A DNA stretch of 58,197 nucleotides. Source: Patescibacteria group bacterium. GTDB taxonomy: Bacteria > Patescibacteriota > Patescibacteriia > UBA1558 > GWA2-36-10. The DNA lies in NCBI GenBank assembly GCA_041665545.1, contig JBAYIQ010000005.1, positions 1 through 58,197 on the forward strand, given 5' to 3'. A model generated the notes under the pieces. The model saw only the letters and a program-made list of their open reading frames with translations. It was not told the DNA's origin and searched no databases. Shown in pieces: positions 13,653 through 36,300 of this stretch; positions within the stretch are counted from its first letter, which is position 1; each line of letters opens with the position of its first letter. Both the position numbers and the translations under genes were made by a program.

Positions 13653-13722
13653 ATTTTTTACGACGCGGGGTAGCCCGCCCGGCACGCCTACGGCGAAGCC
13701 GTGGCGGACGGGAGCAGTACCA
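13653..13722 (+). ncRNA. Leader module: 21-nt copy of the tRNA-fMet 5' flank plus nt 1-10, then a GC-rich nested hairpin
   Basis: ATTTTTTACGACGCGGGGTAG (13653-13673) is identical to 13987-14007. The following CCCGCCCGGCACGCCTACGGCGAAGCCGTGGCGGA aligns with the Leu module. Confidence 0.6.
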
Positions 13723-13736
13723 CACTGAATATGCAT

Positions 13737-13985
13737 ATGAAAATATTACTTTTTTATACTTATGTCCTAAAAAGTAAAAAAGATAACAAATTGTATGTTG
13801 GATATACCGATAATCTAAACAAAAGAATCCAAAAACATAATGATGGAAAAGTTGAATCAACAAAAAATAGAAGACCATTTACATTATTATATTTTGAAGC
13901 TTGCCTAGATAAGTATAAAGCAATAAAAAGAGAAAAATATTTTAAAACGGGCTTTGGTAGGAGATTTTTAAAAAGTAGGATATAA
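13737..13985 (+). CDS. Mini GIY-YIG nuclease-family protein (82 aa), paralogue
   Basis: MKILLFYTYVLKSKKDNKLYVGYTDNLNKRIQKHN... with GIY-YIG-type motifs. It lies entirely between the 21-bp direct repeats that flank the tRNA-fMet 5' end. Confidence 0.7.
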   Translation: MKILLFYTYVLKSKKDNKLYVGYTDNLNKRIQKHNDGKVESTKNRRPFTLLYFEACLDKYKAIKREKYFKTGFGRRFLKSRI

Positions 13986-13997
13986 TATTTTTTACGA

Positions 13998-14073
13998 CGC
14001 GGGGTAGAGCAGTTGGCAGCTCGCCAGGCCCATAACCTGGAGGTCGCCGGTTCGAGTCCGGCCCCCGCTACCA
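13998..14073 (+). tRNA. Initiator tRNA-fMet(CAU), CCA encoded
   Basis: 76 nt. C1xU72 mismatch and an A11:U24 pair (initiator hallmarks). Anticodon loop is CCCATAA, so position 33 is C rather than U. Confidence 0.85.
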
Positions 14074-14117: not shown

Positions 14118-14703
14118 ACATTTACATCGTGTATGTGGTATACTTATTGATGTATGCCAGATACAAGAAAATATGTCGATCGTGCTGAGTATTTAAAACA
14201 AGCAGTTGCTAAACGTCGTAAAGATGTGAAAATAATGCTTGTAAAATATAAGGGCGGTAAGTGTAAGACTTGTGGCTATAAAAAATCCGTAGAAGCTCTT
14301 GAGTTCCATCATATAAATGAAAGAAAAAAGAAGTTTGGAATTTCTGGGCAAGGATTAACTAGATCTTGGAAAAGTGTAAAGCAGGAAGCTGATAAATGCA
14401 TCTTGCTTTGCGCAAATTGCCACAGGGAATTGCACGCAAAATAGTGCAGCTTCCTCAAGTAATTGAGGTTGACAAACGGGGTGAACTGTCCCGCAAAACG
14501 GGAGCCCGCCAAAGGCGGTGCCGGGAAGCCTAAGTCTAAAAGATATGGTAATCCGCAGCCAAGCCCTGAACCAGATGGTTCAGGGAAGGTTCAGAGACTA
14601 TCCGAAAGGAGTAGGCAGTATTTACTAGCCGAAGCGCCCCGCATCCTAAAAAATTATAGGATGATGATATAGTCCATCCCTTTAGGAAACTTAAGGATCG
14701 ATG
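14118..14703 (+). mobile_element. Group I intron carrying an HNH ORF
   Basis: The 5' exon ends in U and the intron ends in G. Core strings CCGCAGCCAAGCCC (14553-14566), GTTCAGAGACTA (14589-14600) and GATATAGTCC (14666-14675) match the conserved catalytic-core blocks of Tetrahymena/Azoarcus-type introns as I remember them. I did not confidently identify P1 or the internal guide sequence by eye, so boundaries are accurate to within a few nt. Confidence 0.75.
14154..14444 (+). CDS. HNH homing-endonuclease-like protein (96 aa), intron-encoded
   Basis: CKTCGY...LEFHHINE...LLCANCHRELH is an HNH motif with two CxxC pairs. The ORF lies wholly inside the intron. Confidence 0.8.
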   Translation: MPDTRKYVDRAEYLKQAVAKRRKDVKIMLVKYKGGKCKTCGYKKSVEALEFHHINERKKKFGISGQGLTRSWKSVKQEADKCILLCANCHRELHAK

Positions 14704-20031: not shown

Positions 20032-21818
20032 TAGCGCTGTAGTTTAGTTATTTCCTTATTTAATAAATTAATTTTATGGGTAATTTGGTCTTGAGTTATT
20101 GTGTCATTTTTTAGTTCGGCCTGACGCAATTGCTCAATCAAAAGCTGACGGCGCTCTTGGAATCTGTTGCTTTTCAATCTTTCCAGAGAAACATTGAAAT
20201 TGCTGTCTAGCTCCTGACCCGATAAATCAGCCATGTTTTGCTCAGCTGACATTAGTAGACGAATATACTGCTGTTTGGCCTCGACTTCCAGTTCGGGCCA
20301 ATCAATAAAATTATCTAAATTATGTTGCTTAGTATAATAGATTATTACCTTTCTGTAAAGATCTAGCAAGTCCGCTTCCATCATTTCTGGCTCCAGCTCA
20401 TTGACCAGGCGCTCCAGATAATTGTTTCGAAAAAATACAATTCCTAATAATTCTTCACTCAAAAAACTGACACTTGGTTTTTTGATGGCTATGACTTTCT
20501 TTTCGGGGCGAACATTTTCCAAGAAACTGCTGACTTGCTTGAGATCACTTTGCAAAATATCTAAAGGCAAATGCAACTTGTCAGCCAATAATTGCAAATA
20601 ATGAGATTGTTCAACCGCGCTTTTTAAATATTTTATAATCGGTAATAATTTTTGCACGGCTATTTTTTTGTGATCAGCCCGATTCAAGTCCACACCAGAT
20701 AAAATTCGCTGAAAATAATAATCCATCACTTGTATAGAATCACGCACCAATTTCAGCCATAAATTTTTATCGCTCTTTACTATGTCAGCTGGATCTTGAT
20801 TTTGTGGCAAGACCAAAATTTTCATATTCATTTCTTGAGCCCAGGCCAAAGTAATACTGCGCAAAGCGGCATTGGAGCCAGCTGTGTCACCATCAAAAGC
20901 CAAAATAACATTGTTGGTATAGCGCTTGATCAACTTCAAGTGATCAATGGTTAAAGCTGTGCCAGAAACTGCCACGGTATTAGTAGTGCCAGCTTGCTGA
21001 CTCAAAATCGCGTCAAGATTGCCTTCCACAATAATCAAATAATTTTTTTGCTTGATGGTGGCTTTGGCCAAGTGCCAACCATACAGTATTTTGCTTTTGT
21101 CATAAATATTGGTTTGCGGACTATTGATATACTTGCCACCAAAATCTTCGTCATGATAAACAATACCCTGCAAAGTGCGCGAAGTAAAAGCCACCACTCG
21201 CCCAGCTGTATCAAATATTGGAAACATCAGTCGCTTGCGAAAGCGATCCACGTAGCCACTGCCATCTTTTTTCTTTACTGAAATGCCAGCTTGAAAAATA
21301 TCGGTATCCGAAAATTTCTTGGCTTTCAAATACTGCAGAGCTTCATCCCAAGACTCGGTACTTAAGCCCAGACCCCATTTTTTTATACTGTCCGTAGTCA
21401 AACCCCGAGACAAAAGATAGTCCAAAACTTTGGCGCTGGTTTCATTTTTATCAAAAAGATTGCTCTGATATTTTTCCGCAATCAAATGATTTATTTCAAA
21501 CAAAAGATTAAAATTTTCCTTGGGTAATGATTGATAGCCAGCCAAAGAAACATTGGCTTTCTCGGCCAACAGCTTGATGGCTTCCGAAAAACTCAAACCC
21601 TCATATTCTTGAATAAAAGTAAAAATATCTCCGCCCTTGCCACAGCCAAAACAATGCCAAATTTGCTTTTCCCGAGAAACCATAAAACTGGCGGTCTTTT
21701 CATTATGAAAGGGACAACGCGCTTTGAGGTTGGAGCCAGTCGAATTCAAGGTGATATATGTGGAGATAATGTCGGCTACATCCAACTTGGCTTTTATTTC
21801 TTCAACCGGGTTCTGCAT
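20031..21818 (-). CDS. dnaG: DNA primase
   Basis: 595 aa. Zinc ribbon [11 protein letters not shown]...CFGCGKGGD and TOPRIM ([18 protein letters not shown]). The stop overlaps the rpoD start (TAATG). Confidence 0.95.
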
Positions 21819-21927
21819 CCCGTTAGAAATTTAAATAATTAAACATATAACTAAAAAAATAAAATTTATCAATAAACCCATTATTTTTTCCACTAAACCT
21901 AGTTTAATGAATTTCTAACGGGATGCA
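21814..21927. repeat. ~110-bp inverted-repeat intergenic element, copy A
   Basis: Perfect 18-bp arms TGCATCCCGTTAGAAATT (21814-21831) and AATTTCTAACGGGATGCA (21910-21927). The left arm contains the dnaG ATG (21816-21818). Confidence 0.85.
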
Positions 21928-21959
21928 TAAGCTTATATTAGGTGAAATACGATTTTTAG

Positions 21960-21998
21960 TCAAAAAGAAAGGCGCTCGAGAGGGGTTTCTCGAGCGCC
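21960..21998 (-). terminator. Terminator of ORF 22028..22444
   Basis: 10-bp stem GGCGCTCGAG / CTCGAGCGCC, followed on the minus strand by TTTCTTTTT. Confidence 0.7.
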
Positions 21999-22027
21999 GT
22001 GGATTGTTGTCGGCTACTGGCCCGCGC

Positions 22028-22444
22028 CTAGGCGTGGACCTGGTAGACCGAATTGCCCCGAGCCGACTTCCAGCTGTCCGCCGATCCGTCGCGGACCAGC
22101 GCTTCGAGGTTGGACCTCACCAACTGGAACAGAAAGAAGTTCCGCTTCTCCCACCGATAGAGGCGCCGCATGACCATGCCAGCGGTCATGGGATGCCTCG
22201 CCCTCTGCATGAGCACGAGCACGCGCTCGCTCATGGGCTGATCGACCATGATCGGCGTGAACTTGACCTCGATGGCCACACCGTCCAGTTCTCCGACGGC
22301 GAGGATCGACGCCGGACGACGATCGCGCGCCCTGCGGATGAACCTCTCGGCCACGGGGAAGACCTTCCCAGCGAAGATCGCGGGCACAGTGATCGAAAGC
22401 ATGATGATGGCGATGATGAGCACGAAAATCTCGATCGGATTCAT
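22028..22444 (-). CDS. Hypothetical membrane-anchored protein (138 aa), possibly with a winged-helix-like C-terminal part
   Basis: GGAGG lies 4 nt upstream of the ATG. There is one N-terminal TM helix (IEIFVLIIAIIMLSITVPAIFA) and the coding sequence is GC-rich. The wHTH idea rests only on the look of ERVLVLMQRARHPMTAGMVMRRLY and is weak. Confidence 0.5.
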   Translation of the reverse strand: MNPIEIFVLIIAIIMLSITVPAIFAGKVFPVAERFIRRARDRRPASILAVGELDGVAIEVKFTPIMVDQPMSERVLVLMQRARHPMTAGMVMRRLYRWEKRNFFLFQLVRSNLEALVRDGSADSWKSARGNSVYQVHA

Positions 22445-22552
22445 GACGCCTCCAATGGCTTGGGACCAGGAACAGTGACCTATATCACATTCATTGGCCT
22501 TTTATGGCCAAAATGCTTCGAAATTAATGCTTGATGAACTGTAAAACAGTAT

Positions 22553-22581
22553 ATCATAGCACAAAAAATAAAAGTTGTCAA
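22553..22581 (-). promoter_or_regulatory. Sigma70-type promoter for ORF 22028..22444
   Basis: Minus strand: TTGACA (22576-22581), 17 nt, TATGAT (22553-22558). Confidence 0.6.
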
Positions 22582-22596
22582 GCCACGGTTAAAAAT

Positions 22597-22627
22597 AACC
22601 TTCGAGGTTGCCATAACCTCGAAGGTT
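22597..22627. promoter_or_regulatory. Perfect 13-bp palindrome between the divergent promoters
   Basis: AACCTTCGAGGTT, spacer GCCAT, AACCTCGAAGGTT. It is extended by CACGG / CCGTG outer pairing. Confidence 0.5.
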
Positions 22628-22678
22628 GGCCGTGTCTACTAGTATTGCACTGATTTGTTGAACCCACGCTACAAACAC

Positions 22679-22707
22679 TTGACAAAATATTATTATTATG
22701 ATAGTAT
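22679..22707 (+). promoter_or_regulatory. Sigma70-type (extended -10) promoter for the NfeD-like/flotillin pair
   Basis: TTGACA (22679-22684), 17 nt ending in TGA, then TAGTAT (22702-22707). Confidence 0.5.
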
Positions 22708-22869
22708 AAAATGTTTTGACCAAATAGCAAAAAATTGAGCTTTTGGTTAAACCAAAAGTTCTTTGAAATGTCATACATCACTCGTAAAAACAACTAATAA
22801 GATCGAGTTTTCTGTCCACAAATCCTATGGCCACAGTGTCAGTGCAACCACGTAACGAAAGGAGTTTCG

Positions 22870-23460
22870 ATGGAACACCAGCAGACCTTCTGGCACATGC
22901 TGGGGAACGACGTGGGGATGATGACGTTCGCCGTTCTGGGCTTCATTGGCGGAGTGTTCACTTTGATCACTCTGGCCTTCGGCCACGGCGACCACAACAT
23001 CGACCACGACTTCAGCGCGGGCGACCACGACTTCAGCGCGGGCGACCACGACAACAACGCCGGCCCGAACGTGTTCTCGTTCCGCAACATCATGCTCTTC
23101 GTCACCGGCTTCGGTGGAATCGGCATGCTGGCCAAGTACCATGGCGCAAGCTTCATTGTGAGCAGCCTCTGGGGCGCTTTCTCTGGCTTCATCATGGCAT
23201 TCGTCGGCTACCTGATCTACCGCGCCCTGTACAAGAGCCAGGCGACCTCGCACATCGACAACTGTTCGCTGTGCGGTTCGATCGCTCTGGTCGAACAGGC
23301 CATCGTCGCTAACGGCATGGGTATCATCGTGGCCGGAGGCGAGATTGGCCACCTCGTTCGCCTCCAAGCCAGAACGAAGGAAGGAACCCCGGTCGCAAAC
23401 GGCCGACAGGTCCGCATCCTGAATATCAACGGGACCGAAGCTCTGGTCGAGGCCCTCTAA
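22870..23460 (+). CDS. YqiJ/NfeD-like membrane protein
   Basis: 196 aa with AAAGGAG upstream. Architecture: TM helix, acidic His/Asp repeat (HGDHNIDHDFSAGDHDFSAGDHD), further TM helices and a beta-rich C-terminal tail. This matches NfeD/YqiJ partners of SPFH proteins, and the gene sits directly upstream of a flotillin gene. Confidence 0.65.
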   Translation: MEHQQTFWHMLGNDVGMMTFAVLGFIGGVFTLITLAFGHGDHNIDHDFSAGDHDFSAGDHDNNAGPNVFSFRNIMLFVTGFGGIGMLAKYHGASFIVSSLWGAFSGFIMAFVGYLIYRALYKSQATSHIDNCSLCGSIALVEQAIVANGMGIIVAGGEIGHLVRLQARTKEGTPVANGRQVRILNINGTEALVEAL

Positions 23461-23503
23461 TCCCTGCTCCAACACACCACCGTCTTCCCAAAGGAGTATC
23501 AAG

Positions 23504-25228
23504 ATGGAACAGTCCGCACACTTCATGCAGTACCTGATCCCCGCGATCATCCTGTTCGTGCTGATCGCCTTTCTGGGTGTGATCCGCCTGGCGGCCAAGA
23601 ACTACATCAAGGTGGCCCCGAACGAGGTGGCCATCATCAGCGGCAGCCGTCACAAGACGACGGTCACGCTGCCCGGCAAGGAGAACGAGCCCCCCACTAC
23701 GGTGGTGCGCGGATACAAGCTGGTCACCGGTGGCGCCTTCTTCAAGGTGCCGATCCGCGATCGGGTCGAGATCATGAAGCTCAATCTGATCCAGATCATT
23801 GTCCAGGTCACCAACGTGCCCGCCCTCAACGGCGTGCGCGTGACGGTCAAGGGCATCGCCAACATCAAGATCCTCTCCGACCAGGCCTCCCTGGCTCTGG
23901 CCGTGGAGCGCTTCCTGGGGAACAACCTCAGCGAAGTGGAACGTGTGGCCAATCAGAACCTGGAGTCCAACCTCCGCGCCGTCGTCGGCACGATGACGGT
24001 CGAGGATCTGATCCGGGACCGGGCACAGCTCCAGGCCCAGATCCTCCGGGAAGCGGTCAGCGACATGTCCAAGATGGGTCTCGGTGTGGACCTGATGAAC
24101 GTCCAGGAGATCACGGACGAGAACGGGTACATCGAGGCCCTGGGCATGGCGCGAACCGCCGAGGTCAAGCGCGACGCAACCATCGGCAAAGCCGAGGCCC
24201 AGCGTGACGCCGACATCCGTTCCGCGGAAGCCGGACGGCTGGGCGAGACGGCCAAGGCCGTGGCTGCACAAGCCATCTCGGATGCGCAGAAGGCCAAGGA
24301 TATCCGCGTTGCCGAGAACGAGAGTCTGGTCAAGGCACAGCAGGCCAGGATCCCGATCATTGCGGAGCAGGCTCGAGCCGAGGAACAGAAGGCGCTCAAC
24401 ATCAAGACCGTCGAGGCCGATCGTGCCAAGACCGAAGCCGAGATCGCCCTGCAGCAAGCGGCTCAGCGCCGGCACGAGGCCGAGCTGAACGCAACTACGA
24501 TCATTCGGGCCACGAAGGACAAGGAGGCCCTAGTCATCGCTGCCGAGGCCAAGGCCCTGGCGGCGGAACGGGAAGGCGAAGCCTACCGCATCCAGCACGA
24601 GATGGAAGGCAAAGGTGACCAGGCCAAGCTGACTGCTGTGGCTCAGGGACGCAAGGAAGCGGCGGCGGCTACCCAGACCGAACTGGAAGCCGCGGCTGCC
24701 GGTAAGAAGGCCGGACTGCTGGCTGACGCCGAGGGTGTCAAGCAGAACGGTCTGGCCAGGGCTGCCGGAGTCGAAGCCGTTGGTGTGGCTGAGGCCACGG
24801 CTTCGGCCAAGAAGGCTGAGGCTTACACCCTGCTTGATGCCAAGGGCATCATGCTCATGCTGCTCCAGCTGTCGCCGGACGTCATCAAGGCGCTCGGCGT
24901 GGCTGTCGGCGACGCCATCAAGCCGTCGGCAGATGCCATCGGACAGGGCCTGGGTAACATCAAGGAACTGCGCATGGTGGATCTGGGTGGCGGTTCGGCT
25001 GGCGGGGCTGGCGGGGGCAATGTCCTCAATCAGTTCGTCAACCAGCCCATCCAGACCTTGTATGGCCTGATCGAACGGATGAAGGCCACGGGCATGGCAC
25101 CGGCGTTCATGAAGCTGGCCAAGGAGAAGCTCGGGCTGGATCTCACGGACGTCTTCGCTGGTGCTCCTACCCAGACGACGTCGGACGACACGCACAAGAA
25201 GGGTGGTGATGACACGGCTACGGCTTAG
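23504..25228 (+). CDS. Flotillin-like SPFH/band-7 protein (YqiK/FloT-like)
   Basis: 574 aa with AAGGAG 7 nt upstream. N-terminal membrane hairpin, an SPFH core (NYIKVAPNEVAIISG...GIANIKI) and a long Ala/Glu/Lys/Arg-rich coiled-coil region. Confidence 0.85.
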   Translation: MEQSAHFMQYLIPAIILFVLIAFLGVIRLAAKNYIKVAPNEVAIISGSRHKTTVTLPGKENEPPTTVVRGYKLVTGGAFFKVPIRDRVEIMKLNLIQIIVQVTNVPALNGVRVTVKGIANIKILSDQASLALAVERFLGNNLSEVERVANQNLESNLRAVVGTMTVEDLIRDRAQLQAQILREAVSDMSKMGLGVDLMNVQEITDENGYIEALGMARTAEVKRDATIGKAEAQRDADIRSAEAGRLGETAKAVAAQAISDAQKAKDIRVAENESLVKAQQARIPIIAEQARAEEQKALNIKTVEADRAKTEAEIALQQAAQRRHEAELNATTIIRATKDKEALVIAAEAKALAAEREGEAYRIQHEMEGKGDQAKLTAVAQGRKEAAAATQTELEAAAAGKKAGLLADAEGVKQNGLARAAGVEAVGVAEATASAKKAEAYTLLDAKGIMLMLLQLSPDVIKALGVAVGDAIKPSADAIGQGLGNIKELRMVDLGGGSAGGAGGGNVLNQFVNQPIQTLYGLIERMKATGMAPAFMKLAKEKLGLDLTDVFAGAPTQTTSDDTHKKGGDDTATA

Positions 25229-25280
25229 TAGAACTGACTGTCTCTGACGGTCTGAACTCTGAGCCAAAGCTTTCATAGAG

Positions 25281-25352
25281 GGGAGGCGGTGCTACACAGC
25301 ACCGCCTCCCACTCCAAAACAAGAGGGATCTTTCGTAACCCCTCTTTTTTTA
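25281..25352 (+). terminator. Tandem hairpins/terminator after the flotillin gene
   Basis: 13-bp stem GGGAGGCGGTGCT-ACAC-AGCACCGCCTCCC, then AGAGGG...CCCTCT followed by a T-run. Confidence 0.65.
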
Positions 25353-25400
25353 TTTTTTAACCAAAATAAAAAGGGTACTCCCTAATTACACTGTCAACAC

Positions 25401-25456
25401 AAAAAGACCCTGCACCGGAGCCACGTAAGTGGCGACTGGTACAGGGTCGATTTTTT
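25401..25456. terminator. Bidirectional terminator (serves ORF 25463..26422)
   Basis: Long imperfect stem GACCCTGCACCGG / CTGGTACAGGGTC flanked by A5 and T6. Confidence 0.55.
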
Positions 25457-25462
25457 ATACTT

Positions 25463-26422
25463 TTATTTTACTGGCACTGGTGGCGCCACTTGAACTGGCG
25501 AACCATCCTTATTGAAGGCCTGCACTTTTTGAGTCAAACACTGATAGCCAATACCATGTGGCCAGCGCGTGTCATAATAATAAGCCATGTCTTTGTTTTG
25601 AGTGTTGGCTGAAGCGTCAGTCAAAAAAGTAGTGCACAATTCATACTCCCGATCGCCTTTGACCTGGTATTTAAAAATTTCTTGAGTCTTGGGGTTTTTT
25701 AATAAATCATCACTAATATATGTGTACTCTGCTTTTAGGGCGTTAAAATCCGCTGGTAATTTTTTATATGTTTGATAATAATTATTTAAATCCTGATCAA
25801 TCTGATAAAAATTATTAGTAACCCTTTGATCAATCTGTCTGTTTCTAGCTACTTGAGGAGATTCTACTATAAACAGCGAAGCCACAAAAGTGACAATAAT
25901 CACTGCCAGTGAAGCAAAAAAGTATATTTTTATAACACTGTCTTTATAGCCAGCAGTTTTTTCCCGTCTAATATCATAAAAATAAAAGGAAAAAACAATG
26001 CCCGAAATAACCAGAGTGGTTAAAGATTTGAGAATAATTTGAGTAGTCAAAGCGCCGTTTAAAAAATTGACCAGAATAGCAATCAGAGAGCCAATCATTA
26101 CTAAAAAGGCAATGAAGATGATTAAATAAGTCAACCATTTGCGCACGCCTGATTCTTTGTCTAGCTCGCCTTTGTACAAACTGCCATAAATAAACTTATT
26201 GCAAAAATAATAAGTTGGTGTGGCAATCACTAGTGAGGCGATAGCAAACTTTAAGATATCCGAAGAAAAAGCCGCATTGTTTTGACTCAAAATATCAACA
26301 ATATATTTGTTGATCAATTGAAAAATTATTTGTCCAACGTTGACGGACACGAAGCCCAAAGCCACCAACGCTAACAAATAAAGAAACGCAAACTTCGCTG
26401 AATTGTTTTTTGTGTTATCCAT
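25463..26422 (-). CDS. Hypothetical polytopic membrane protein with a C-terminal soluble domain
   Basis: 319 aa with about six TM helices, followed by a Cys-containing tail (ELCTTF...GYQCL). Confidence 0.5.
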   Translation of the reverse strand: MDNTKNNSAKFAFLYLLALVALGFVSVNVGQIIFQLINKYIVDILSQNNAAFSSDILKFAIASLVIATPTYYFCNKFIYGSLYKGELDKESGVRKWLTYLIIFIAFLVMIGSLIAILVNFLNGALTTQIILKSLTTLVISGIVFSFYFYDIRREKTAGYKDSVIKIYFFASLAVIIVTFVASLFIVESPQVARNRQIDQRVTNNFYQIDQDLNNYYQTYKKLPADFNALKAEYTYISDDLLKNPKTQEIFKYQVKGDREYELCTTFLTDASANTQNKDMAYYYDTRWPHGIGYQCLTQKVQAFNKDGSPVQVAPPVPVK

Positions 26423-26481
26423 ATTTTTTGGTTAATTATTAATAAAGTTAAAAAATCATAAAAATAAATCGCAAAAAAATA

Positions 26482-27219
26482 TTAATCAGGTTGAGCGACT
26501 CCCCCTAAATTAGCATGTAAATTCATAAAGTACTCGTGTACAACAATAATAGACACAAATACAGCAAAACGAAATATAAGATCAAATATTGAAAAATTAA
26601 CACCCGAAATATATATTGATAAAAATGATGTGCTCGGCCACAACCAATTATTATAAACAACTAACACCGCTTGCATAATAATAAATACTAAGGAAAAAAA
26701 AGCAGCAGTCGATAAAGATTGCTTTAACAAGTCTTTTTGCCAAGAAATAATAATTGCCGCTGGCAATATAAAAAAAGGAACAAAAATAAGATAACTGCTA
26801 AACTTAAAAAAATATGGATACGCAAAGCACAGGGCTAAAACAGTAATCAATAAAAAAATGTAAAGGGAAAATAAATAGTGAAAACGATCCGAAATATCAC
26901 CAACCTGCTCGTGTTTCACAAAATATTTATAAAAAGAAATGACCCATAAAACTGTAAAAAAAGTGAAAAGTAAATTTGTCATGGCCAAAGGAGCCGCTGG
27001 AATCCGCCAATCACCACTGCTAACAAAACGACTAGCCAGTGCTATCAAGGGAGTAATGAGCGCTGTTACAATCAAGGAAAACAAAAAAACCTTGGCGCGA
27101 GCAATGCTTAGCCAAAAAAAATTTACTAATGTCGGTGGTACAAGCACCAAAGCAACCGCCATGTAATAATTGAGATTAAAAAAGACAATGCCTATGGCCG
27201 CCACAATGGTATAGGCCAT
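26482..27219 (-). CDS. Hypothetical polytopic membrane protein
   Basis: 245-aa hydrophobic ORF. Confidence 0.5.
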   Translation of the reverse strand: MAYTIVAAIGIVFFNLNYYMAVALVLVPPTLVNFFWLSIARAKVFLFSLIVTALITPLIALASRFVSSGDWRIPAAPLAMTNLLFTFFTVLWVISFYKYFVKHEQVGDISDRFHYLFSLYIFLLITVLALCFAYPYFFKFSSYLIFVPFFILPAAIIISWQKDLLKQSLSTAAFFSLVFIIMQAVLVVYNNWLWPSTSFLSIYISGVNFSIFDLIFRFAVFVSIIVVHEYFMNLHANLGGVAQPD

Positions 27220-27292
27220 TAAACAACTAATTTTTACCGTTGCTTTATTAATGTTGATAATATTATTGAAAATTATTAATAAAATTTATTGA

Positions 27293-27805
27293 TCAAGAAA
27301 CTACACCACTCAGCAATCCTTTCAAAAAAACTGAATCAAAAATCGCGCTTGTTATATATATATTATAAATATAGTGCAAGAGCACGGCCCCCATCAGGCC
27401 AAAAACAACATATTTTCTTTTTTCTAACCCAGACATTACCATCAATAAAACAGTAGAAAAATGCATGGGTAGAGGCCATAAAAATCTGGCTAAAAAAAGA
27501 TCATAATCACCCGCTCTAATAAATCCTTCCAAATAAAAAATATTTTCCCAAATACCAAAAATTAGGCCAAAGAAAAAACCCATTAACATTTTTCGGTTCG
27601 AACCAACAAGCTTTAAAATAAAAAAATAAACCACCAAGACCTTGCCTAATTCCTCAAAAACTATTGACCACGAAGGTGCCATTTTCCCCAAAAAAATCAA
27701 CAAAAGCGGTAAAAATGTAGCAAAGATAATTATCAACAATAACGAATTTTTATCGCCATCACCCAGTATTCCTTCTTTGGCTACTTGATCATTTTTCATT
27801 ACCAA
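27293..27805 (-). CDS. PrsW-like intramembrane protease, paralogue 1
   Basis: 170 aa with the motifs FEELGKVLVV, GIWENIFYLE, WPLPMHFSTV and LLHYIYN. This is the EE..K / EN..Y / H pattern I associate with the PrsW family. Confidence 0.55.
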   Translation of the reverse strand: MVMKNDQVAKEGILGDGDKNSLLLIIIFATFLPLLLIFLGKMAPSWSIVFEELGKVLVVYFFILKLVGSNRKMLMGFFFGLIFGIWENIFYLEGFIRAGDYDLFLARFLWPLPMHFSTVLLMVMSGLEKRKYVVFGLMGAVLLHYIYNIYITSAIFDSVFLKGLLSGVVS

Positions 27806-27826
27806 GTTTTTTTTAATAATAATATA

Positions 27827-28642
27827 TTATAGTATAGCACCAGGAGAAAAAACTACATACAAATATAGGCCAATAAATAAAATAGCATAAGCCAAGATAA
27901 TGGCCACATAGACCCAAGGTTTATAACCTTTGTGTTCCAGCTTGCTGTGGCCTTTGATTTTGAGTAGATTATTATATAACTGATAAGTATAGATGATAAT
28001 AAAAATACCAAAAAAGAAATCAAAAATAGAACTAACAAAATCTTGCAGTGCTTGATTTTTTATTATACTCATCAGCAAGCTGAATAAAAATAAAGGTACA
28101 AATAGGGCCAACAAACGCAAAGCCACTGCGCTCCAATAGCCCGTCACTAGCTCTTTGCTTCTTTTTACAGCTGTATAGCCGTGATAATTTTCCAAGAAAA
28201 ATACCCACATTACTAGTGAATAAAATATCAGAAAAATAAATCCGGGAACTACCAATAATATCAGCCACAACATAAGCATCAAGCCCGCCCAAAATAAAGT
28301 CAAGGAATAATTCCAAAAATATTTACCAGCTGATCGCCAAACATCTTTGACACTAGTTATATCTTTACTAACCATCAAATAAACGGCGATATTGATGCGA
28401 AAAGAAATATATAAAAGCGGTATGGCCATCAATAATGCTAGTAAAGTATTGATCACTGTAAAGTTAGGGTCATTTCTAAAAATAACAGCAATTATTGCTA
28501 ACAAAATAGCGACTAATAAGGATGGAAGAAGACCAAGCAAGGCCATTCGAATTATTGTCTTTATCTTTTCTTTGTACATTGCCCAAGAGCTTATAAACAG
28601 CTCATTGACTGGCAACAATGGTGTCATTTTTTCTGCGTCCAT
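27827..28642 (-). CDS. Hypothetical polytopic membrane protein
   Basis: 271-aa hydrophobic ORF. Confidence 0.5.
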   Translation of the reverse strand: MDAEKMTPLLPVNELFISSWAMYKEKIKTIIRMALLGLLPSLLVAILLAIIAVIFRNDPNFTVINTLLALLMAIPLLYISFRINIAVYLMVSKDITSVKDVWRSAGKYFWNYSLTLFWAGLMLMLWLILLVVPGFIFLIFYSLVMWVFFLENYHGYTAVKRSKELVTGYWSAVALRLLALFVPLFLFSLLMSIIKNQALQDFVSSIFDFFFGIFIIIYTYQLYNNLLKIKGHSKLEHKGYKPWVYVAIILAYAILFIGLYLYVVFSPGAIL

Positions 28643-28647
28643 AAAAT

Positions 28648-28824
28648 TTATTTATTATTGCAAGGTGTTGTTGGCTGAGAAGCACTCGGATTGCCGTGTT
28701 TAACCCACTGGCCTTTGGTACAAAGCCAAGTGTCCTCATCGCCACGCAACCACATCAAACCAGCTAACAAAAAAGCGGCCACTAAAAAAATGATAATAAT
28801 GATAAAAAATTTTGGTGGTTTCAT
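28648..28824 (-). CDS. Small membrane-anchored protein (58 aa), absent from the ORF track
   Basis: Hand translation: MKPPKFFIIIIIFLVAAFLLAGLMWLRGDEDTWLCTKGQWVKHGNPSASQPTTPCNNK*. One TM helix and two Cys in the exposed tail. It fills the gap between two genes on the same strand. Confidence 0.45.
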   Translation of the reverse strand: MKPPKFFIIIIIFLVAAFLLAGLMWLRGDEDTWLCTKGQWVKHGNPSASQPTTPCNNK

Positions 28825-28853
28825 ATAATGTTAATTAAATTTATTTGACCAAA

Positions 28854-29312
28854 TTAAAGCCAAAAAACAAAATAATTATTATAAAAAAAGTGAATCGCCA
28901 TAGTAATTATCATTGCTATTATAATCCAACGCCTATCGCGCCAAGCCAGCAATAACATAAAATAAACCGTCAGCAGATGCATCAAAGTCGGCCAGAAAAA
29001 ACGCCATAAATATAAACTAACAGAATTTTGTTGGGCAAAGTTTAAAAAATAAAAAATGTTTTCGGACATGGCAAAAACTAAAACAAAAACTAAAGCGCCC
29101 CAAACTCTCTGTCCTCCTTGACCAAATTTTAATACCATATAAACCACTACCAAACCCTTAGCGACTTCTTCAATTAATGCTGGATAAGGTAATAGTATCT
29201 TTTCAACAAACAATAATAACAAGGGTAATAATAAGCCAATCAATGCTAAAAAAGTAAAATAACGACTATTGTCTAGGGGCTCTGTTACTAACTTTTTTGT
29301 TACTGTCACCAT
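28854..29312 (-). CDS. PrsW-like intramembrane protease, paralogue 2
   Basis: 152 aa with the motifs LIEEVAKGLVV, AMSENIFYFLNF, WPTLMHLLTV and AIHFFYN. Confidence 0.55.
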   Translation of the reverse strand: MVTVTKKLVTEPLDNSRYFTFLALIGLLLPLLLLFVEKILLPYPALIEEVAKGLVVVYMVLKFGQGGQRVWGALVFVLVFAMSENIFYFLNFAQQNSVSLYLWRFFWPTLMHLLTVYFMLLLAWRDRRWIIIAMIITMAIHFFYNNYFVFWL

Positions 29313-29317
29313 GCTTA

Positions 29318-30307
29318 TTAATTACTCTGACTTTTGTTATTGACAAAATTATAAGTGTCCTTAGAAATTAAAGAAATCAAATCTTTGGCTTTGGCTAACT
29401 CAATATTGGAAGTCATGACGCAAATAAAATATGGATTAACCGCATGATAAACAACGCCACAGTCGTGCAAAGCATCCAATCTTTCCCCATATTTATGAGC
29501 TATCTGGACTTCCCAGGGAATCTTGGCTGACAACAAACTTTCTGCTCTAGTATCGGTTGTTAAAGACAATAAATATTCTGAATTATCTGGTGTTAAAAAA
29601 GTGGAATAATATAAAGACTTAAATAATCGGCTATACTCGCGCGGAGTAACATATTGATTGGAATTTTCTGAGATATATGGATTATTGATACCGACATGAG
29701 TAAAGACGGCGTTTAACTCCTCTGGTTGCAATTGCCTTTTCAAAATATTTTTAGCCGTGTTGTCAGATACCTTGAGCATCAGTTTCAACAACTCACTGAC
29801 TGTATAAGATTCATTAACAGTGAAGCGCTCTGGCACGCCAGCGCTTTTGTCAATATCTTCCGCCTTAACCGGCAACTTGTCATCCAAGTTAAGTTGTTTG
29901 TTCTCAATTTTTTTCATGACAGACATGGCAATGGGAATCTTCAATAAGCTAGCTGGAAAAAAATTATCTTTTTCATTGATACCCATCCACGAGCCAGTGT
30001 TGATATCTTGAATATAAATACCTAATTTTTGACTGGGACTCAAAATACTTAAATTTTTCTCCAACTGACTTTTTAAGTCAACAAAATGCAACAATATTTT
30101 ATCTGTCTCTATATTACTATCGATTGGCACCAGCTCAATTTTTTTACTAAGCAAACTATGACTAGCTAACCATTCAGTATTTTTTTTATCTAGTTCAGTT
30201 ATTTTGCTACCACTTTTATAATTGAAAAAAAATAAAATATTAGCTAAAAAAGATAACACCAAAAGCGCAATCAATATGTAAATTTTCTTAACCATAATTT
30301 TTTTCAT
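29318..30307 (-). CDS. Class-A-beta-lactamase-like serine hydrolase, membrane-anchored
   Basis: I took the start at the ATG (MKKIMVKK...); the track start at 30313 is a TTG. N-terminal anchor, SxxK (ASLLK), SDN (KVSDNTA) and a K[TY]G-like HKYGE. Confidence 0.6.
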   Translation of the reverse strand: MKKIMVKKIYILIALLVLSFLANILFFFNYKSGSKITELDKKNTEWLASHSLLSKKIELVPIDSNIETDKILLHFVDLKSQLEKNLSILSPSQKLGIYIQDINTGSWMGINEKDNFFPASLLKIPIAMSVMKKIENKQLNLDDKLPVKAEDIDKSAGVPERFTVNESYTVSELLKLMLKVSDNTAKNILKRQLQPEELNAVFTHVGINNPYISENSNQYVTPREYSRLFKSLYYSTFLTPDNSEYLLSLTTDTRAESLLSAKIPWEVQIAHKYGERLDALHDCGVVYHAVNPYFICVMTSNIELAKAKDLISLISKDTYNFVNNKSQSN

Positions 30308-30313
30308 TAACAA

Positions 30314-33300
30314 CTATTTTAGTTCTTCAGCATATTCAGCAAACACCCAGCCAACTTTATTTTCAGTTAAAGCTATTTGATACCAGCCAAATTTTTCTAA
30401 ACCCTGAGCCGCCACTTGACTAAGCAAGTCGTATTTTTCTCCGGCACTTACTTTGGCCACAACGGCTGTTTCTTTGGAAGCTTCCTGCCTGACATTGAGC
30501 CAACCAGTTGGTGTATCTTTAATAATAACTTGTTTCTTCATTAAAATATCTTCCGTAGCGGGTACTGTGCTACTAGAAGTGGAACTGGCACTTTCTGAAC
30601 CAAAACTAAAAGCCATATTATTATCAGCTAAAACAGGAATATTATCAAGCTTATTGACGTCAGTTTCAGAGGCGACGGTCACATTGTTGGCTGACCTAAG
30701 TTCGTCAGTCTTAATATATTTTGATAAATTTTGTCTAATATTAGCCAAAATACCATATTTATCAACTAACAAATACAAAACTATAAAAATCAAAACAAAA
30801 GTAATAAGCCAGACTTTATTTTGTCTGATATTTTTGAACAAGCGAGTAAAAAATTGCTTAATATAGATTAAAAAACTTGTCGATACTTTGGCCTTTGCTT
30901 CGACGCTAGCTATATTGGCTGGACTATTTTTGCTAACTGCTGCTTTCTTCTTTTTTCTGCGCCCACCAGAGGAATTCATTTTTTCCATATCAAGCGGCTT
31001 GCCAGTCAAAATATGCGACTGCAAGGCCATCTGACCATTGGCTATGGCTACTTGATGCTTCCACATGGAGAACAAGATGGTCACTAACAAACCAAAGCCG
31101 GTGACAAAAGCAATAATGATCCCCCACACCGAAATGGTCTGTATACCACCCAAGGCTCCCAAAAATCCGCGAGAGGCATCAGCTTGGCTCAATAGTGACT
31201 TCAATTCATCCAATTCTGTCTGCACACTAATAAAACTTTCTTTATTTTCTCGATAAGTCATAATTTTATCTTGCGGGGAGGCAGTATTTTCTTTTTGAGT
31301 ACGCAGAATTTTTTCTACTTTGCTATCAATATCATTTTTGAGTAATAAAGCTTGAGAAGAAAGTTGATTTTTTTCTAATTTCTTATAAAAATCATTGGCC
31401 TGCGTCTTGGCTATAGTCAAATCATTTTCAGCAATCTGCCAAATATCTCGCATTTTAATAAATTTTTTGACCGAAGCACCCGGAGCCAATTCAATCTCGC
31501 CAGCCGCATACAAAGTATCTAGCTGAACATCGTACTGAATATTGAAACCGCCATCATCCATAATGTGCTCTACTTTAGCTTCCTTTGGAAGATAAATCTT
31601 GAATGGCACTTTTTGAGCAGTCTTGGCTGGATTGGAAAGCATGATGTTCAAATCCACTGAACCAGAGGTGTACCAAGTGCTGACTATCGGAGCCGTGGCC
31701 TGCTGAACCACTTGACGCTGAACAGTGGTGACGGCTTTGTAGTCGGCTAATTTATTACGCACATATTTTATATCCGTCATATTCTCCTGCGAGATGGACA
31801 GTATTGAACTCAAAGTATCGCTATCCAGACGGCCCAGTTTGGTATTGATGTTCTGAATGGAGTTGGAGATGGTACCCATGGCTGTGAACATCTCCTCGGG
31901 CTTCACATTGTAAACATTGGTATTGTTGGTGGTACTACTGCCGGAGCCAACTTCAATATTATCAATACTTGTTTCTAGAGTAGCGATGCTAGCTTCAATA
32001 TTATCTAGTTGAGTTTTGATTAAAGCAATATCTGCCTTGATCAAAGTCACGTCGTCCTTGATGCCAGCCACATCGGACTGGATGGTGCTGATCTTAGTCA
32101 CTGGTACGGCTAATGTTTTTAAAATAGTAAAAGCGTCACTGCTAGCTGGCGCAAAGGGAAGATCTGGTTCTACTGTAATGGCTTTGGTTGTACCATTATA
32201 ATCATCTATTCTTCTGGCTACACCACTGTTTTGGCCAGAAGTAAAAGTCAGCAGTGCGTGAGCATATAAATCATTGACAGCGCTGGTAAGATTTGTGCCA
32301 AATAAAGAAATTGTCGGGCTAACTTCGGCTGTAGAAACAGCGGAGCGAATGGCAATCAAATCATTGGACAACAAATCAACTGAGTTACTCACCGCGTCTA
32401 TACTATTACCCAGTGTCGTTTCAGTGGACTGCAAATCAGATAATGTGGCTAGCGACCCACTGTCTAAATCCGCTCCTGATAAATAACGACCACTGTAGGC
32501 CCAAATAGAAGCCGCGTCCAAAGTAGCAGTATTTGAAGTCTGGGCCAAAATAGTAAAGGTGTCAGCATTGGCAGGAGCCAGAGCCAAAGCAGGATCGACC
32601 GTGATCGCCTTGGTGGTGCCATTGTAGCCCATAATCCTTCTCGCCTGACCAATATTTAAACCCGAGGTGAACAATAAGATATTATTTTTATAAAAATCAT
32701 TAGTGGCATTAGTCAAGGCAGTAGCAAATACTGTGGTTGATGGCGCCAAATCATTCACTGAAGTTTCCGAAACAATCAAGGCATTGATAATTTTATCTAG
32801 CTTAGTGCTGTTGACGCTAATAGCACTAGCCAAAACTGTTTCCGTATCTTGAATATCTGACAAAGTAGCTAAAGAACCAGAGTCTAAAGTGGCACCTGAT
32901 AAATACCTGTCGCCATAGGTCCAGATAGCGGCCGCATCAACTGCCGAGTTGGCTGTCTGCGCTAAAATAGTAAAGGTATCGGCATTAACCGGAGCTAAAG
33001 ATAAAGCTGGCGAAACAGTAACCTGTTTGCTAGCCCCGACATAATCGGTAATACGACGCGCTTGACCAGCGTTGACGCCAGAAGTAAAAACCAAGACACC
33101 GTTGTTATAAAAATCATTACTGTTGCTGGTCAAAGTTGTAATAAATTGATTATCTGAAGCGCCGGCATCATTGACCACTTTTTGTTCCACTATTAAATTA
33201 TTAATCAGCGTATTTAATTGTCCGCTCAAAGTACTTTCGGTAGATTGTATATTTGACAAAGTGGCTAAAGATCCGGAGTCTAAAGCGGCGCCTGACAAAT

Positions 33301-36300
33301 AGCGACCATCGTAGGCCCAAATAGCGGCTGCATCAAGTGAGGCATTGGCGGTTGAGGCCAAAATAGTAAAAGTATCACTGCTAGATGGAGCAACCGACAG
33401 AGCCGGAGTAATAGTCAATTTTTTGGTAGCGCCAACATAATTGCTAATGCGTCTAACCTGACCAGCATTGGATCCAGAGGTAAATACCAAAACACCGTCA
33501 TTATAAAAATCATCATTGGCATTGGTCAGGGTGGTAATAAATTCTGTGGTTGAGGGACTTGGGTCATCAACGGCTTTTTGGGCGACCAATAAATTATTTA
33601 TCAAATTGCTTAAACTATTGGCAACCGCTGTCACCTCAGCTGATGAAGCGCGAGAAGAAATAGTAGTATCAATATTGGTTTTTAATAAAGAGCCAATGCT
33701 ATTGATAGTCGTGATTGAGGTCAAAAGTGTATCCCAAACTCGTTGTGCCGTCAGATCGCCAGATGTTAGGGTGCGAGTTTCATAAGTCCAAATTTCAAGA
33801 GCTAAAGCGGCTAAACCATCATTCTCAATACTAGTAATTGTCCTGGTGCCCTCACTCCAAACATCTGATGCCGTCAAATTACTAGTGCCACGAGAAGAAA
33901 TAGTAGCATTCAAATTATCAACTATCAGTTTGCCAATAGAACCACCCGTAGAAAGCAAAGCTGATGCTATATTCCAGACTTGAGCTGGATCAGATAAGGT
34001 GACTCCACCACTCAAACTGCGGCCACCAGCTGACCAGACATCAGCCGCTGAAATATTATTTAAGGCCTGTATGTCAGCCAAAGTAGCCAAGGAGCCACTA
34101 TTCAAAGTAGCGTCAGTCAAACGACGAACATTGTACTCCCATATTTCTTGGGCAGTCGCCCCGCCACCGCCAGTAGCGCTAGAATAATAACTTAAAATAA
34201 TAAATTCATCATTGAAAGCTGGCGCATAAGGCATGGCCGCATCCACCGTAATTGCTTTGGTGGCGCCATTGTAGCTAGAAATTCTACGGGCAATACCAGC
34301 ATTCTGGCCACTCATCATAACCACCATTTGATTTTGATAAAAATTAGAAGTGGCTTGTGTCATGTCTGTCACAAAGACAGTGGCTGAAGCGGCCACATCA
34401 TTGACCAAGCCCCGCTTGATGGCCAAGCGATCATTTAAAAGTTGCCCAAAAGATCCATCAATATCAGCAAATGACCCCACTTGTGCTCCCCAAATACTAG
34501 TAGCCGTCAAGCCAGTTGACAACCACGGCACCACTGGTTGACCAGAAGAATGAAAATCCAAAGTACCAGTATCTACTGTACCCGATAAAACAGCCATATC
34601 ATCTATGTACACCGATGGCTGTCTAAAAATAATATAATCACCCATCGTGGCATTGGTCAGAGTGGTACTTAAAAGATGTGGCACTACTCCACTACCCTTC
34701 AAATACAATAACTGGGCAGTATTTTTTACAATATCAAATATCTTACCATTAGCGTCTTTAAATTTATAGCCGACCCATTGATTGGTGGTCCAACTTTTAT
34801 CAACATCCTCAACAATGATTGGCAAATAATTACCCAAGGAATCATCGATAATTTCACTGGTGCCAGAATCAGCGGCCACAAAAGCTGACTGCACGGAAAA
34901 TTTTATATCGGCAATAGCTGACTCTGTAGGCGTACCAGACACCACAAACTGTTGCCAATCATTAGCCGTGTCTTGTGCTGTCCAAGTAAGGTTGGCACCA
35001 GTCATACCCAGACCAGATAAGGTAACTGTCGGTAAATTAGTAGACCCATAATAACTATTGATATTCATATAGCCCGTAATGGCTAGTGGCTGGTTAGCCA
35101 CACCAATGACTTTGGCTGTATATTCAAGTGGCGCATCAGGATTCAGCGAATCCAGACGCCACGCATAACCACTAGCTGTGTGAGCAGTGGAATCATTGAG
35201 ACCTAACCCGGAAGTTCGCATATTACCAAAAGTGGTAAAATTAACTATGTCTTTAGTCGAGCTAGAATAATTGCCGCGAATATCAGCTCCGGGGATAGTC
35301 AGACCATAAAAATGTTCTGGTATCCTAGACATATTATTATAATCGGCCATGCCAAACAAAACCGGACTTAATAATTGAGTATTAGAGCCGGTAAATTGCA
35401 TCAATGATTCTGCTTCAAAAGTAGTGGTATTAGCTGGTATACTAATATCTGCCTCATTCCAAGAACCACGACCAAAAATACTACCACTATCCATAATACC
35501 CACATTGGCCGTGGTTTGGGCCACGCTGATTCCTGCGCCATATCCAGCTTGATTTAAGGTGACAGTATCCGAGACCGAGCCATCAAAAACATTATCAGAC
35601 ATCGTGAGGAAAGAATTACCATTGAGCCGTATACCAAAATTATTTACTGAAAAAATATTGTTAGCGATAGTCATTTTGGCTACGCCACTATTTAAATTAA
35701 CTGCTCCGCTAGTAATACCCGTCACACCATTATTATAAAACTGGCTATTAGCAATAGTGTACAAACGTCCAGACACAAAAGAAGCCGCACCATTAGCCGA
35801 GGTCAAAGCCGCATTAGTGTTGCGACATCCCATAAATATACTGCCATCAATGCCAACGTTTTGTGAAGCTGTAGCATTATAACCAGTGCCTAAAGTAGTG
35901 GCGCCAAAGTTGGTGGTCACAAAATATGCTCCCACAGTATTAGTGCCTTGAGTTTTGGCTGATACCGTATAAGCACGATCATAATAATTATAAAATACTG
36001 ACTTACTGACTGTCTGTGTTGGTTTGACCAATGTGGAAGTATAAGGATTGTTCATTATAGAAAAATTACTATACTGATTCTCAGTAGAAAGATGACTAAC
36101 GTTCAGATTCGCTAAACCTGACAAACCCACAGCTACTGTACCAAAAGCATTGCCCATGTGTATGGGCGTGGCCACTGTGGCACCGGTAGCATTTATTTCC
36201 TCATCCGACCACATGTGTATACTACGCTTGAGATTCAACACTGGCGAATTGTAAGGAGCTGAAGTAGAGTCCCGCTTGGCCTTGTGATGGAAAGTAAAAT

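Follow-up and report, generated by a model that had tools for sequence, protein, structure and literature searches.

A strain-variable NfeD-flotillin cassette with GC-rich codon usage in an AT-rich Patescibacteria genome

The DNA analysed here, referred to as the window, comprises positions 1-58,197 of the forward strand of contig JBAYIQ010000005.1 from a Patescibacteria group bacterium (assembly GCA_041665545.1). Its subject is a 3.4-kb GC-rich island next to dnaG that carries three genes, an NfeD-like gene followed by a flotillin gene and, in the opposite orientation, a gene for a protein of 138 amino acids named p138 (Table 1). An earlier note, made by eye from the letters of the sequence, had described a jump in composition at this place, and computation bears this out. 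The GC content of 21928-25352 is 0.583, and the three island genes have a GC of 0.60-0.63 and a GC at third codon positions (GC3) of 0.81-0.86, against means of 0.382 (standard deviation 0.032) and 0.370 (standard deviation 0.046), respectively, in 36 native genes, which corresponds to z values of 6.7-7.8 for GC and 9.6-10.5 for GC3. In 300-bp windows GC climbs from 0.34-0.44 to 0.59-0.66 across about 21950-25250 and falls to 0.35-0.40 at 22400-22850, and there are two GC-rich blocks (21931-22483 and 22811-25343), the 425-bp spacer between the divergent genes having a GC of 0.37. The rest of the window ranges from 0.30 to 0.47 GC per kb, and outside the island GC-rich DNA is confined to a tRNA cluster, a group I intron, about 300 bp near the start and a small block at the end. 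The GC excess of the island resides almost wholly at third codon positions, with an inverted codon table of the generic high-GC type (AAG 0.96, TTC 0.94, ATC 0.90, CTG plus CTC 0.92). GC1 and GC2, the values for the first and second codon positions, do not differ among homologues whatever the host GC, and in the island they agree with those found in compositionally uniform genomes. Since they are also equal in homologous genes that are AT-rich, amino-acid composition is ruled out as the cause of the excess. Long antisense open reading frames (ORFs) inside the GC-rich blocks, one of which was chosen over p138 by one gene caller and whose translation is of low complexity, are the usual by-product of GC-rich DNA.

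Table 1. Positions of the features in and around the GC-rich island, in window coordinates.
Feature	Position	Strand	Remarks
Miniature inverted-repeat transposable element (MITE)-like element, copy A, 105 bp	21819-21923	.	exactly upstream of the dnaG start codon
p138 intrinsic terminator	21971-21998	-	11-bp stem with 8 GC pairs, then TTTCTTTTT
p138, 138 aa, GC3 0.86	22028-22444	-	GGAGG 4 nt ahead of ATG
p138 promoter	22581-22553	-	TTGACA-17-TATGAT, extended -10 TG
Strain-variable segment, flotillin cassette proper	22582-25353	+	from blastn of relatives against the window
Perfect 13-bp hairpin	22597-22627	.	between the divergent promoters
NfeD-flotillin operon promoter	22679-22707	+	TTGACA-17-TAGTAT, extended -10 TG
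AT-rich 5' leader, about 155 nt	22715-22869	+	from the predicted transcription start
NfeD2/YuaF-type partner, 196 aa	22870-23460	+	AAAGGAG ahead of the start
Tandem repeat	22977-23058	+	encodes the DHDFSAG units of the partner's His/Asp loop
Flotillin, SPFH2-type, 574 aa	23504-25228	+	AAGGAG ahead of the start
Operon 3' untranslated region (UTR) and terminator	25281-25352	+	hairpins 25281-25310 and 25322-25345 (extends to 25352), then T-run
81-aa gene, GC3 0.74	57742-57987	+	directly after groES; Shine-Dalgarno motif GGGAGGTG

As far as sequence comparison goes, the two co-directional genes are an ordinary NfeD2-flotillin membrane-scaffold operon whose gene content is nothing unusual; the earlier note had named them as such, and domain, PDB and family-profile matches agree. 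The downstream protein matches the Pfam family Band_7 (PF01145) at residues 36-233 (E 3.2e-22, 79.8 bits, cut-off 23.6), and its residues 73-348 match flotillin-2 and flotillin-1 in the PDB (E 2e-36 and 1e-35, respectively), whereas QmcA and the PH stomatin are matched at merely 1e-4 and 6e-4. It scores 194.1 bits against NCBIfam FloT (NF058507), below the equivalog cut-off of 700, and on these matches it is classed as a flotillin-family member, not as a FloT equivalog. A hydrophobic stretch is visible near its N-terminus, at about residues 9-29. The upstream partner, which is separated from the flotillin start by a gap of 43 nt on the same strand, is sub-threshold when compared on its own with Pfam NfeD (PF01957; 16.6 bits, cut-off 29.1). 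Within its family, 10 of the 16 aligned members match PF01957 (best E 4e-7), and the family profile matches YuaF of B. subtilis (2K14, E 2.2e-10) and the stomatin operon partner 3WWV (E 2e-3). By inspection of the sequence and the alignment, the partner has three hydrophobic segments, a loop rich in His and Asp and a C-terminal OB-fold domain, and it stands beside flotillin at every homologous locus examined except L017, where none was resolved.

NfeD2-SPFH2 operons are known pairs that co-evolve and are transferred together (PMC2636767), and the order found here, with the NfeD-like gene directly upstream of flotillin, is also that of yuaF-floT (yuaG) in B. subtilis and yqiJ-yqiK in E. coli (Hinderhofer et al. 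2009, PMC2636767). The architecture of the partner is likewise shared with these systems, as are the N-terminal anchor of the flotillin, its SPFH domain and its long Ala/Glu-rich helical region. What differs here is the FloT score, the repeat-expanded His/Asp loop, a conserved AT-rich leader with a hairpin, and the GC3-rich coding in an AT-rich Patescibacteria genome. By analogy with characterised homologues, the flotillin would form oligomers at the cytoplasmic side of the membrane, its NfeD partner would dock to it by a C-terminal OB-fold, and the two together would scaffold membrane microdomains.

A further property that sets the island apart is translation initiation. The three genes are led by strong Shine-Dalgarno (SD) motifs, placed as the earlier note had placed them, and native genes are almost all without. 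The duplex of the flotillin SD with the anti-SD amounts to -8.2 kcal/mol, while nearly all of about 40 native starts scored in this way lie above -3 kcal/mol, with AAGG or AAGGA as their best motifs. The same association is seen among 186 ORFs from twelve related loci, in a set that was called crudely and in which antisense mis-calls add noise to the GC-rich class: ORFs with a GC3 of at least 0.60 have a median duplex of -5.0 (50% at -5 or below), and those with a GC3 below 0.50 a median of 0.1 (7% at -5 or below). In a published survey, about half of the Parcubacteria were reported to lack the anti-SD motif in their 16S rRNA (PMC9297842). At 8 of 36 native starts a plausible -35/-10 pair ends 3-10 nt upstream of the ATG; leaderless mRNAs are not claimed for the native genes, since just these 8 fit and the count has no control.

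The promoters that the earlier note had read in the AT-rich spacer are present as two divergent, near-consensus TTGACA-17-TAnnnT sequences, both with an extended -10 TG, and the terminators that it had placed at both ends of the island are found there. The -10 side of the p138 promoter is homologous with strains that lack the flotillin pair, which also hold TTGACA at the equivalent position. The hairpin between the two promoters could be an insulating terminator or an operator. The operon promoter is kept in the homologous cassettes of L139, L147, L134 and L004, and partly in that of L138. In alignments, the first ~75 nt of the leader are conserved among cassettes of different genomes and include a 10-bp hairpin (22738-22760), for which RNAalifold gives 10 pairs with one compensatory change and several wobble changes. 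Promoter plus leader have a GC of 0.32 in the window. A search of leader and spacer against Rfam returned matches no better than chance, which rules out a known RNA family there. The hairpins of the 3' UTR are conserved among cassettes as well, as seen in the alignment and in the sequence of L156.

The sharp compositional borders of the island, and one Logan contig that begins inside it at 23023, might suggest a chimera in which GC-rich DNA of another organism was joined to a Patescibacteria contig, an artefact against which the earlier note had cautioned. It is hardly conceivable here. The JGI and ENA (megahit) assemblies are 100% identical to the window over 13504-35228 and span both junctions; the Logan assembly is 100% identical over 23023-35228, which includes the right junction only, and its break falls within the tandem repeat of the partner gene. 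In addition, dnaG, p138 and the pair are contiguous in the same layout in L139, which comes from a different run and has about 87% DNA identity to the window, and six more cassette contexts show the same mosaic.

The limits of the variable unit emerge from three very close relatives, L139, L141 and L143, which were found via their p138 homologues and whose DnaG, sigma-70 and DUF5671 proteins are 96-99% identical to those of the window. Synteny, which the earlier note had proposed to check, is kept in one of them and broken in two: L139 carries the flotillin pair at the same site, and in L141/L142 and L143/L144 the order is DUF5671, a GC-rich gene of 127-128 aa and dnaG, with the pair absent. 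The cassette is present, then, in 2 of 4 strain lineages. Homology with the pair-less strains in blastn runs from 21924 to 22567, with the -35 TTGACA recognisable to 22581, and restarts at 25354; what lies between is a segment with a promoter, the conserved 5' leader, the YuaF-type NfeD gene, the flotillin gene and terminators. Because L141 and L143 keep p138 but have no flotillin pair, the 3.4-kb block is not one unit. Of the self-contained imported unit that the earlier note proposed, the accessory character and the own promoter, SDs and terminators stand, and the inclusion of p138, which is separate and occurs in all four lineages, does not. In L141 and L143 the cassette site is filled instead by a stretch of roughly 150 bp, AT-rich and unrelated in sequence, in which two ACCCGCCGGGT hairpins stand in inverted orientation. 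The strain tree from dnaG four-fold distances is (window,(L139,(L141,L143))), on which the simplest history is that of an ancestral pair replaced on the L141/L143 branch; the strain ancestral to both the window and L139 probably carried the pair already. The genes called up to 10 kb to the left and right of the island include no integrase or transposase, in agreement with the earlier note, no tRNA gene lies near it in the window, and the junctions of the variable segment have no target duplication.

The MITE-like inverted-repeat element upstream of dnaG, which the earlier note had taken for a border feature of the island, is ruled out as a border or mobility feature. It is a 105-bp strain-specific insertion with a TGCAT target-site duplication, and it is missing from the island-bearing L139 as well as from L141 and L143, all of which read ...ggttctgcataagctt... 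through the site. The window contains three copies of it (12070-12210, 21811-21930 and 46060-46205), with arms GCATCCCGTTAGAAATT and AATTTCTAACGGGATGCAT; the element is about 105 bp long and has terminal inverted repeats of 17-21 nt. Copies A (at dnaG) and C each have an arm directly against the start codon of a gene on the minus strand, and these genes begin AATTTCTAACGGG-ATG. The arm of copy B lies just within the called start of the neighbouring gene.

In each of the four strain lineages, with or without the flotillin pair, the divergent gene p138 adjoins dnaG; it is a resident gene of the locus, limited to this lineage. It has no match in Pfam or NCBIfam. An exhaustive HMMER search yields 2 relatives among 1.84 billion representatives, none of them outside this lineage, and 4 relatives are found among 5.8 billion protein clusters. 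An AF2 model based on an alignment of five sequences, which is usable for the C-terminal domain only, predicts a helix at residues 3-24, a disordered linker and a C-terminal helix-helix-helix-strand-strand domain (block-mean pLDDT 83-91); a single-sequence model was unusable (pLDDT 45). Foldseek matches of this domain in the PDB are mostly Zur, Fur, BlaI, MecI and MarR, with a best E of just 1.6e-3 and TM-scores of about 0.4, and p138 may be a membrane-tethered (single-pass) winged-helix protein. With a dN/dS of 0.5-0.7, against 0.02-0.1 in core genes, it is fast-evolving. Its first ~45 residues, which hold the anchor and the linker, are non-homologous in L141 (9494-9880), where the putative winged-helix domain is conserved.

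Relatives of the pair are of particular interest with respect to its origin. All relatives above 60% identity whose contigs were read are GC3-rich pairs (0.74-0.88) with flanks of GC 0.27-0.44. Apart from the strain L139 (flotillin 89% identical), they include L147, a JGI metagenome contig on which the pair adjoins ogt and DUF5671 (74% over 46% of the query, split ORFs), the groundwater contigs L132-135 (72%; flanks 27-38% GC), the Logan contig L156 (71%; source not recorded; AT-rich beyond the terminators), the Patescibacteria metagenome-assembled genome (MAG) L004/L005/L006 (69-70%; between groES and Wzy_C), and the seawater contigs L136-138 (61%; between tRNA-Trp and dnaJ). The flotillin of L147 (1948-3692) is split into overlapping ORFs of 325 and 270 aa, either by a frameshift (a pseudogene) or by a sequencing error. 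In two genomes the GC-rich pair abuts a tRNA gene, namely tRNA-Trp upstream in L138 (1393-1466) and tRNA-Leu(CAA) downstream in L010 (4881-4962). More distant homologues are also GC3-elevated in Parcubacteria, Buchananbacteria, Paceibacteria and one Saccharibacteria genome; no such elevation is seen in Fischerbacteria, a second Saccharibacteria genome or two unnamed MAGs. The homologues that carry a label and are 41-72% identical belong to Patescibacteria lineages, one Fischerbacteria genome and two MAGs labelled 'bacterium', and the next group, at 34-39%, is mainly Acidobacteriota. In a neighbour-joining tree the window's flotillin falls in a large clade in which Patescibacteria labels dominate, with Lentisphaerae, Bipolaricaulota and Acidobacteriota outside.

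No GC-rich donor was found: among 5.8 billion protein clusters, searched by word index, no relative above 54% identity came from a GC-rich context. The only uniformly GC-rich context encountered, which also has the best match in such DNA, is L148, a phage-like contig of 72% GC whose pair is 54% identical. This contig (1-11190) has co-directional, overlapping small genes, a PurZ-like adenylosuccinate synthetase of the 2-aminoadenine pathway, a phosphoesterase and PHROG matches, and its NfeD-like and flotillin pair implies that phages can carry the operon. The relatives in IMG/VR reach just 32-35% identity, which rules out a phage carrier among its contigs. A scan of metagenome contigs returned one close relative (the L004 contig); it did not return the window's own contig, so it adds little. 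The earlier suggestion that the composition of a donor might hint at the host or a co-resident lineage is not supported, the flotillin clade being mainly Patescibacteria and the relatives at 61-89% being islands in AT-rich contexts. Most of these relatives for which upstream sequence is available share with the window an AT-rich promoter and leader: in the window, L139, L147, L134 and L004 the homology covers the promoter and ~75 nt at the start of the leader, at a GC of 0.30-0.43. It follows that the common ancestor of these cassettes had already joined an AT-rich control region to GC-rich coding sequence, and the shared region is hard to square with descent from a genome of 65-72% GC. Lastly, three loci (L004, L132 and L156) have the pair in convergent orientation with the same gene, an AT-rich Wzy_C (of which L156 contains only the last residues, recognised by the motif GLFDHYLWTSW). 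The Wzy_C proteins of L004 and L132 are just 41% identical, with four-fold sites near saturation; the three flotillins are 68-82% identical to one another and have a GC at four-fold sites (GC4) of 0.76-0.89.

The rate at which synonymous sites change gives another view on the age of the composition. Between the window and L139, L141 and L143, core genes show a dS of 0.27-0.61, a dN of 0.008-0.028 and a dN/dS of 0.02-0.10, with a four-fold divergence of 0.20-0.36 at a GC4 of about 0.5, and island genes show a dS of 0.18-0.42, a dN of 0.05-0.31 and a dN/dS of 0.19-0.73, with a four-fold divergence of 0.09-0.19 at a GC4 of 0.80-0.95. For the window and L139 alone, the four-fold divergence is 0.10-0.19 in the island and 0.26-0.34 in the core. 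A two-state decay model with rates taken from core genes requires an ancestral GC4 of 0.95-1.05 and predicts about 27% GC-to-AT class differences, against observed values of 15% in flotillin (P = 3e-5), 17% in the partner (P = 0.014) and 7% in p138 (P = 9e-5). The pattern extends to deeper levels: between the window and L004, the four-fold divergence is 0.56-0.57 in the core and 0.375-0.416 in the island. By arithmetic, the saturation-corrected island/core ratio of four-fold distances is about 0.6 at both the shallow and the deep level, which looks like co-divergence with a reduced synonymous rate. GC4 holds at 0.75-0.90 over deep divergences and island synonymous sites evolve more slowly than those of the core, and the picture of a recent, decaying import is not upheld. 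Ordinary translational selection is ruled out as the cause of the high GC3, because the native groEL and groES, which are taken as highly expressed, show no shift to GC-ending codons, their C/(C+T) being 0.24-0.29 compared with 0.77-0.93 in the island genes.

The flotillin pair and p138 are not the only genes of this kind. The 81-aa gene at the end of the window sits where L004 (9157-11746) carries its flotillin pair, between groES and Wzy_C, and at the same site the close relative L145 (8001-9235) has a relative of the 81-aa gene and two more GC3-rich, SD-led genes; this intergenic site is a variable cassette hot spot. L145 has more small GC3-rich, SD-led genes in the interval from uvrA to uvrC, and L010 has them next to its flotillin pair. 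Pfam gave nothing significant for five other cassette proteins of the window, L145 and L004, and the divergent gene of L010 has a sub-threshold match to Pro_CA_2 only; apart from this match, none of these genes belongs to a known family. Scanning revealed no canonical promoter ahead of the 81-aa gene, and a TTGACA-17-TATAGT promoter is rejected there, the hexamers being 29 nt apart. The 81-aa gene is followed by two tandem ACCCGCCGGGT palindromes (to about 58075), and the contig ends 120 bp further on. This palindrome is also the one that occurs, as an inverted pair, where L141 and L143 lack the flotillin cassette.

These cassettes resemble several known kinds of variable DNA. Flexible genomic islets of the replacement type have variable content at a fixed site between core genes and contain no integrase. 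As with these islets, presence of the flotillin cassette varies among strains whose core proteins are 96-99% identical, its borders lie in conserved flanks with unrelated alternative content and no mobility genes, and a second site (groES/Wzy_C) holds different cassettes in different strains. Unlike islets, the cassettes share a signature of GC3 0.66-0.88 and SD motifs that is opposite to the core genome, and each has its own SD and terminator; the flotillin, p138 and L145 150-aa units have a canonical promoter, and for the 81-aa gene none was found. In the model of Lawrence and Ochman, acquired islands of deviant composition ameliorate towards the host. Deviant GC and codon usage and a patchy distribution among strains fit such islands, but the search for a donor found none, homologous cassettes in deeply diverged AT-rich genomes deviate in the same way, and synonymous divergence is below that of the core instead of equal to it with a GC-to-AT bias. 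Integron cassettes are similarly small, often with one or two genes of unknown function, strain-variable and arrayed at hot spots; here, in contrast, there is no integrase within 10 kb, no attC-like site was seen (no formal search was made), several cassettes have their own promoter, the 81-aa gene being the one for which none was found, and all have their own SD and terminator.

Taken with a probability of roughly 55%, the preferred reading is that 22582-25353 is an accessory, self-contained operon cassette of the Patescibacteria flexible gene pool, the GC-rich codon usage of which persists. The cassette would occupy a replacement-type site between the p138 promoter and the DUF5671 terminator, and homologous recombination of the core DNA on either side, with no integrase involved, would account for its gain and loss. 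A GC3 of about 0.8 would be a heritable trait of the cassette lineage rather than a mark left by recent transfer from some GC-rich phylum, and its persistence in AT-rich genomes would imply selection or biased gene conversion on synonymous sites. It is improbable that, as the earlier note had it, the three-gene block is one recent import from a GC-rich donor outside the Candidate Phyla Radiation (CPR). The extreme GC3, the generic high-GC codon table and the SD-led starts amid native genes without SD would suit such an event, and Patescibacteria are known to exchange genes (PMC12455944), but p138 occurs without the pair in two strains and has no homologue beyond the lineage, the nearest labelled flotillins are nearly all from Patescibacteria with the mainly Acidobacteriota group at only 34-39%, the pair probably predates the split of the window and L139, which differ by 0.26-0.34 at core four-fold sites, and the promoters and leader are AT-rich, of host-type consensus and conserved among cassettes.

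The main rival to a persistent cassette lineage is repeated delivery from an unsampled GC-rich reservoir (high-GC Patescibacteria, a phage or a plasmid), with copies that decay neutrally. We consider it unlikely, though clearly less so than a single import. It would account for the 54%-identical pair on the phage-like L148, which belongs to the same broad clade, for the gain and loss of the cassette between near-identical strains and its location at hot spots, for the two cassettes that abut tRNA genes, and for a cassette GC3 that spans 0.49-0.88, as expected of copies differing in age. Inter-strain recombination, moreover, is evident, and an ancestral GC4 of 0.87-0.94 is enough if island alleles coalesce later than the core. 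Such a reservoir is opposed by the lack of any relative above 54% identity in a GC-rich context, by the finding that all relatives at 61-89% whose contigs were read are islands, and by IMG/VR, with nothing closer than 35%. A homologous AT-rich promoter and leader would also be unexpected from an ancestor of 65-72% GC. An island/core synonymous ratio of about 0.6 at two very different depths, which looks like co-divergence, and Wzy_C synteny in three deeply diverged genomes oppose the reservoir as well. Several points weigh against the persistent lineage itself. The lower divergence of the island could reflect a younger coalescence of its alleles through inter-strain recombination, under which, by arithmetic, the ancestral GC4 just given with ongoing decay is feasible. 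The synteny with Wzy_C could reflect repeated insertion, as that site is a variable hot spot. The genealogy of p138 conflicts with the dnaG tree, which together with its N-terminal non-homology in L141 points to recombination inside the gene. The neighbour-joining tree is rough and most homologues in it carry no taxonomy; contexts were read for only some of the matches at 45-54% identity, one of which is the phage-like contig of 72% GC. The 3' end of the 16S rRNA lies outside the window, and the use of the island's SD sites is a prediction from motif and duplex score. Finally, the mechanism that keeps GC3 high is a proposal only, from which groEL and groES exclude ordinary translational selection. 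A broader form of the preferred reading, which we hold tentatively, is that AT-rich, SD-poor Patescibacteria stably keep, without recent import, a class of small cassettes with a GC3 of about 0.7-0.9 and strong SDs as a second codon and initiation regime. This class would include the flotillin pair, p138, the 81-aa gene and others, and the force maintaining it would be selection or GC-biased conversion.

Some other features of the window deserve mention. About 300 bp at 242-538 have a GC of 0.54; neither a tRNA nor an Rfam match is found there, and the stretch may be a structured RNA gene not yet recognised or another small GC-rich gene. A group I intron (14473-14696; Rfam, 81 bits) lies near five tRNA genes (12543-14073) and near ORFs resembling GIY-YIG homing endonucleases (L001 1-482, equivalent to window 13504-13985). 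A giant minus-strand ORF of 4143 aa (30314-42745), with weak matches to SH3_3 and Phage_BR0599 in a precomputed Pfam annotation, lies downstream of consecutive membrane-protein genes (PrsW-like and DUF5671).

The interest of the island lies in its composition: what looks like a textbook 'foreign GC island' recurs as a GC3-rich, SD-led cassette in deeply diverged AT-rich Patescibacteria. If this GC3 is actively maintained, methods that detect horizontal gene transfer by composition would systematically misread such CPR genes, and a strong force specific to a class of genes would act on the synonymous sites of reduced genomes. SD-dependent and SD-independent initiation would then represent separate expression channels within one small genome. 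As for the function encoded, genes for a membrane scaffold belong to the strain-variable gene pool of these episymbiont-type bacteria.

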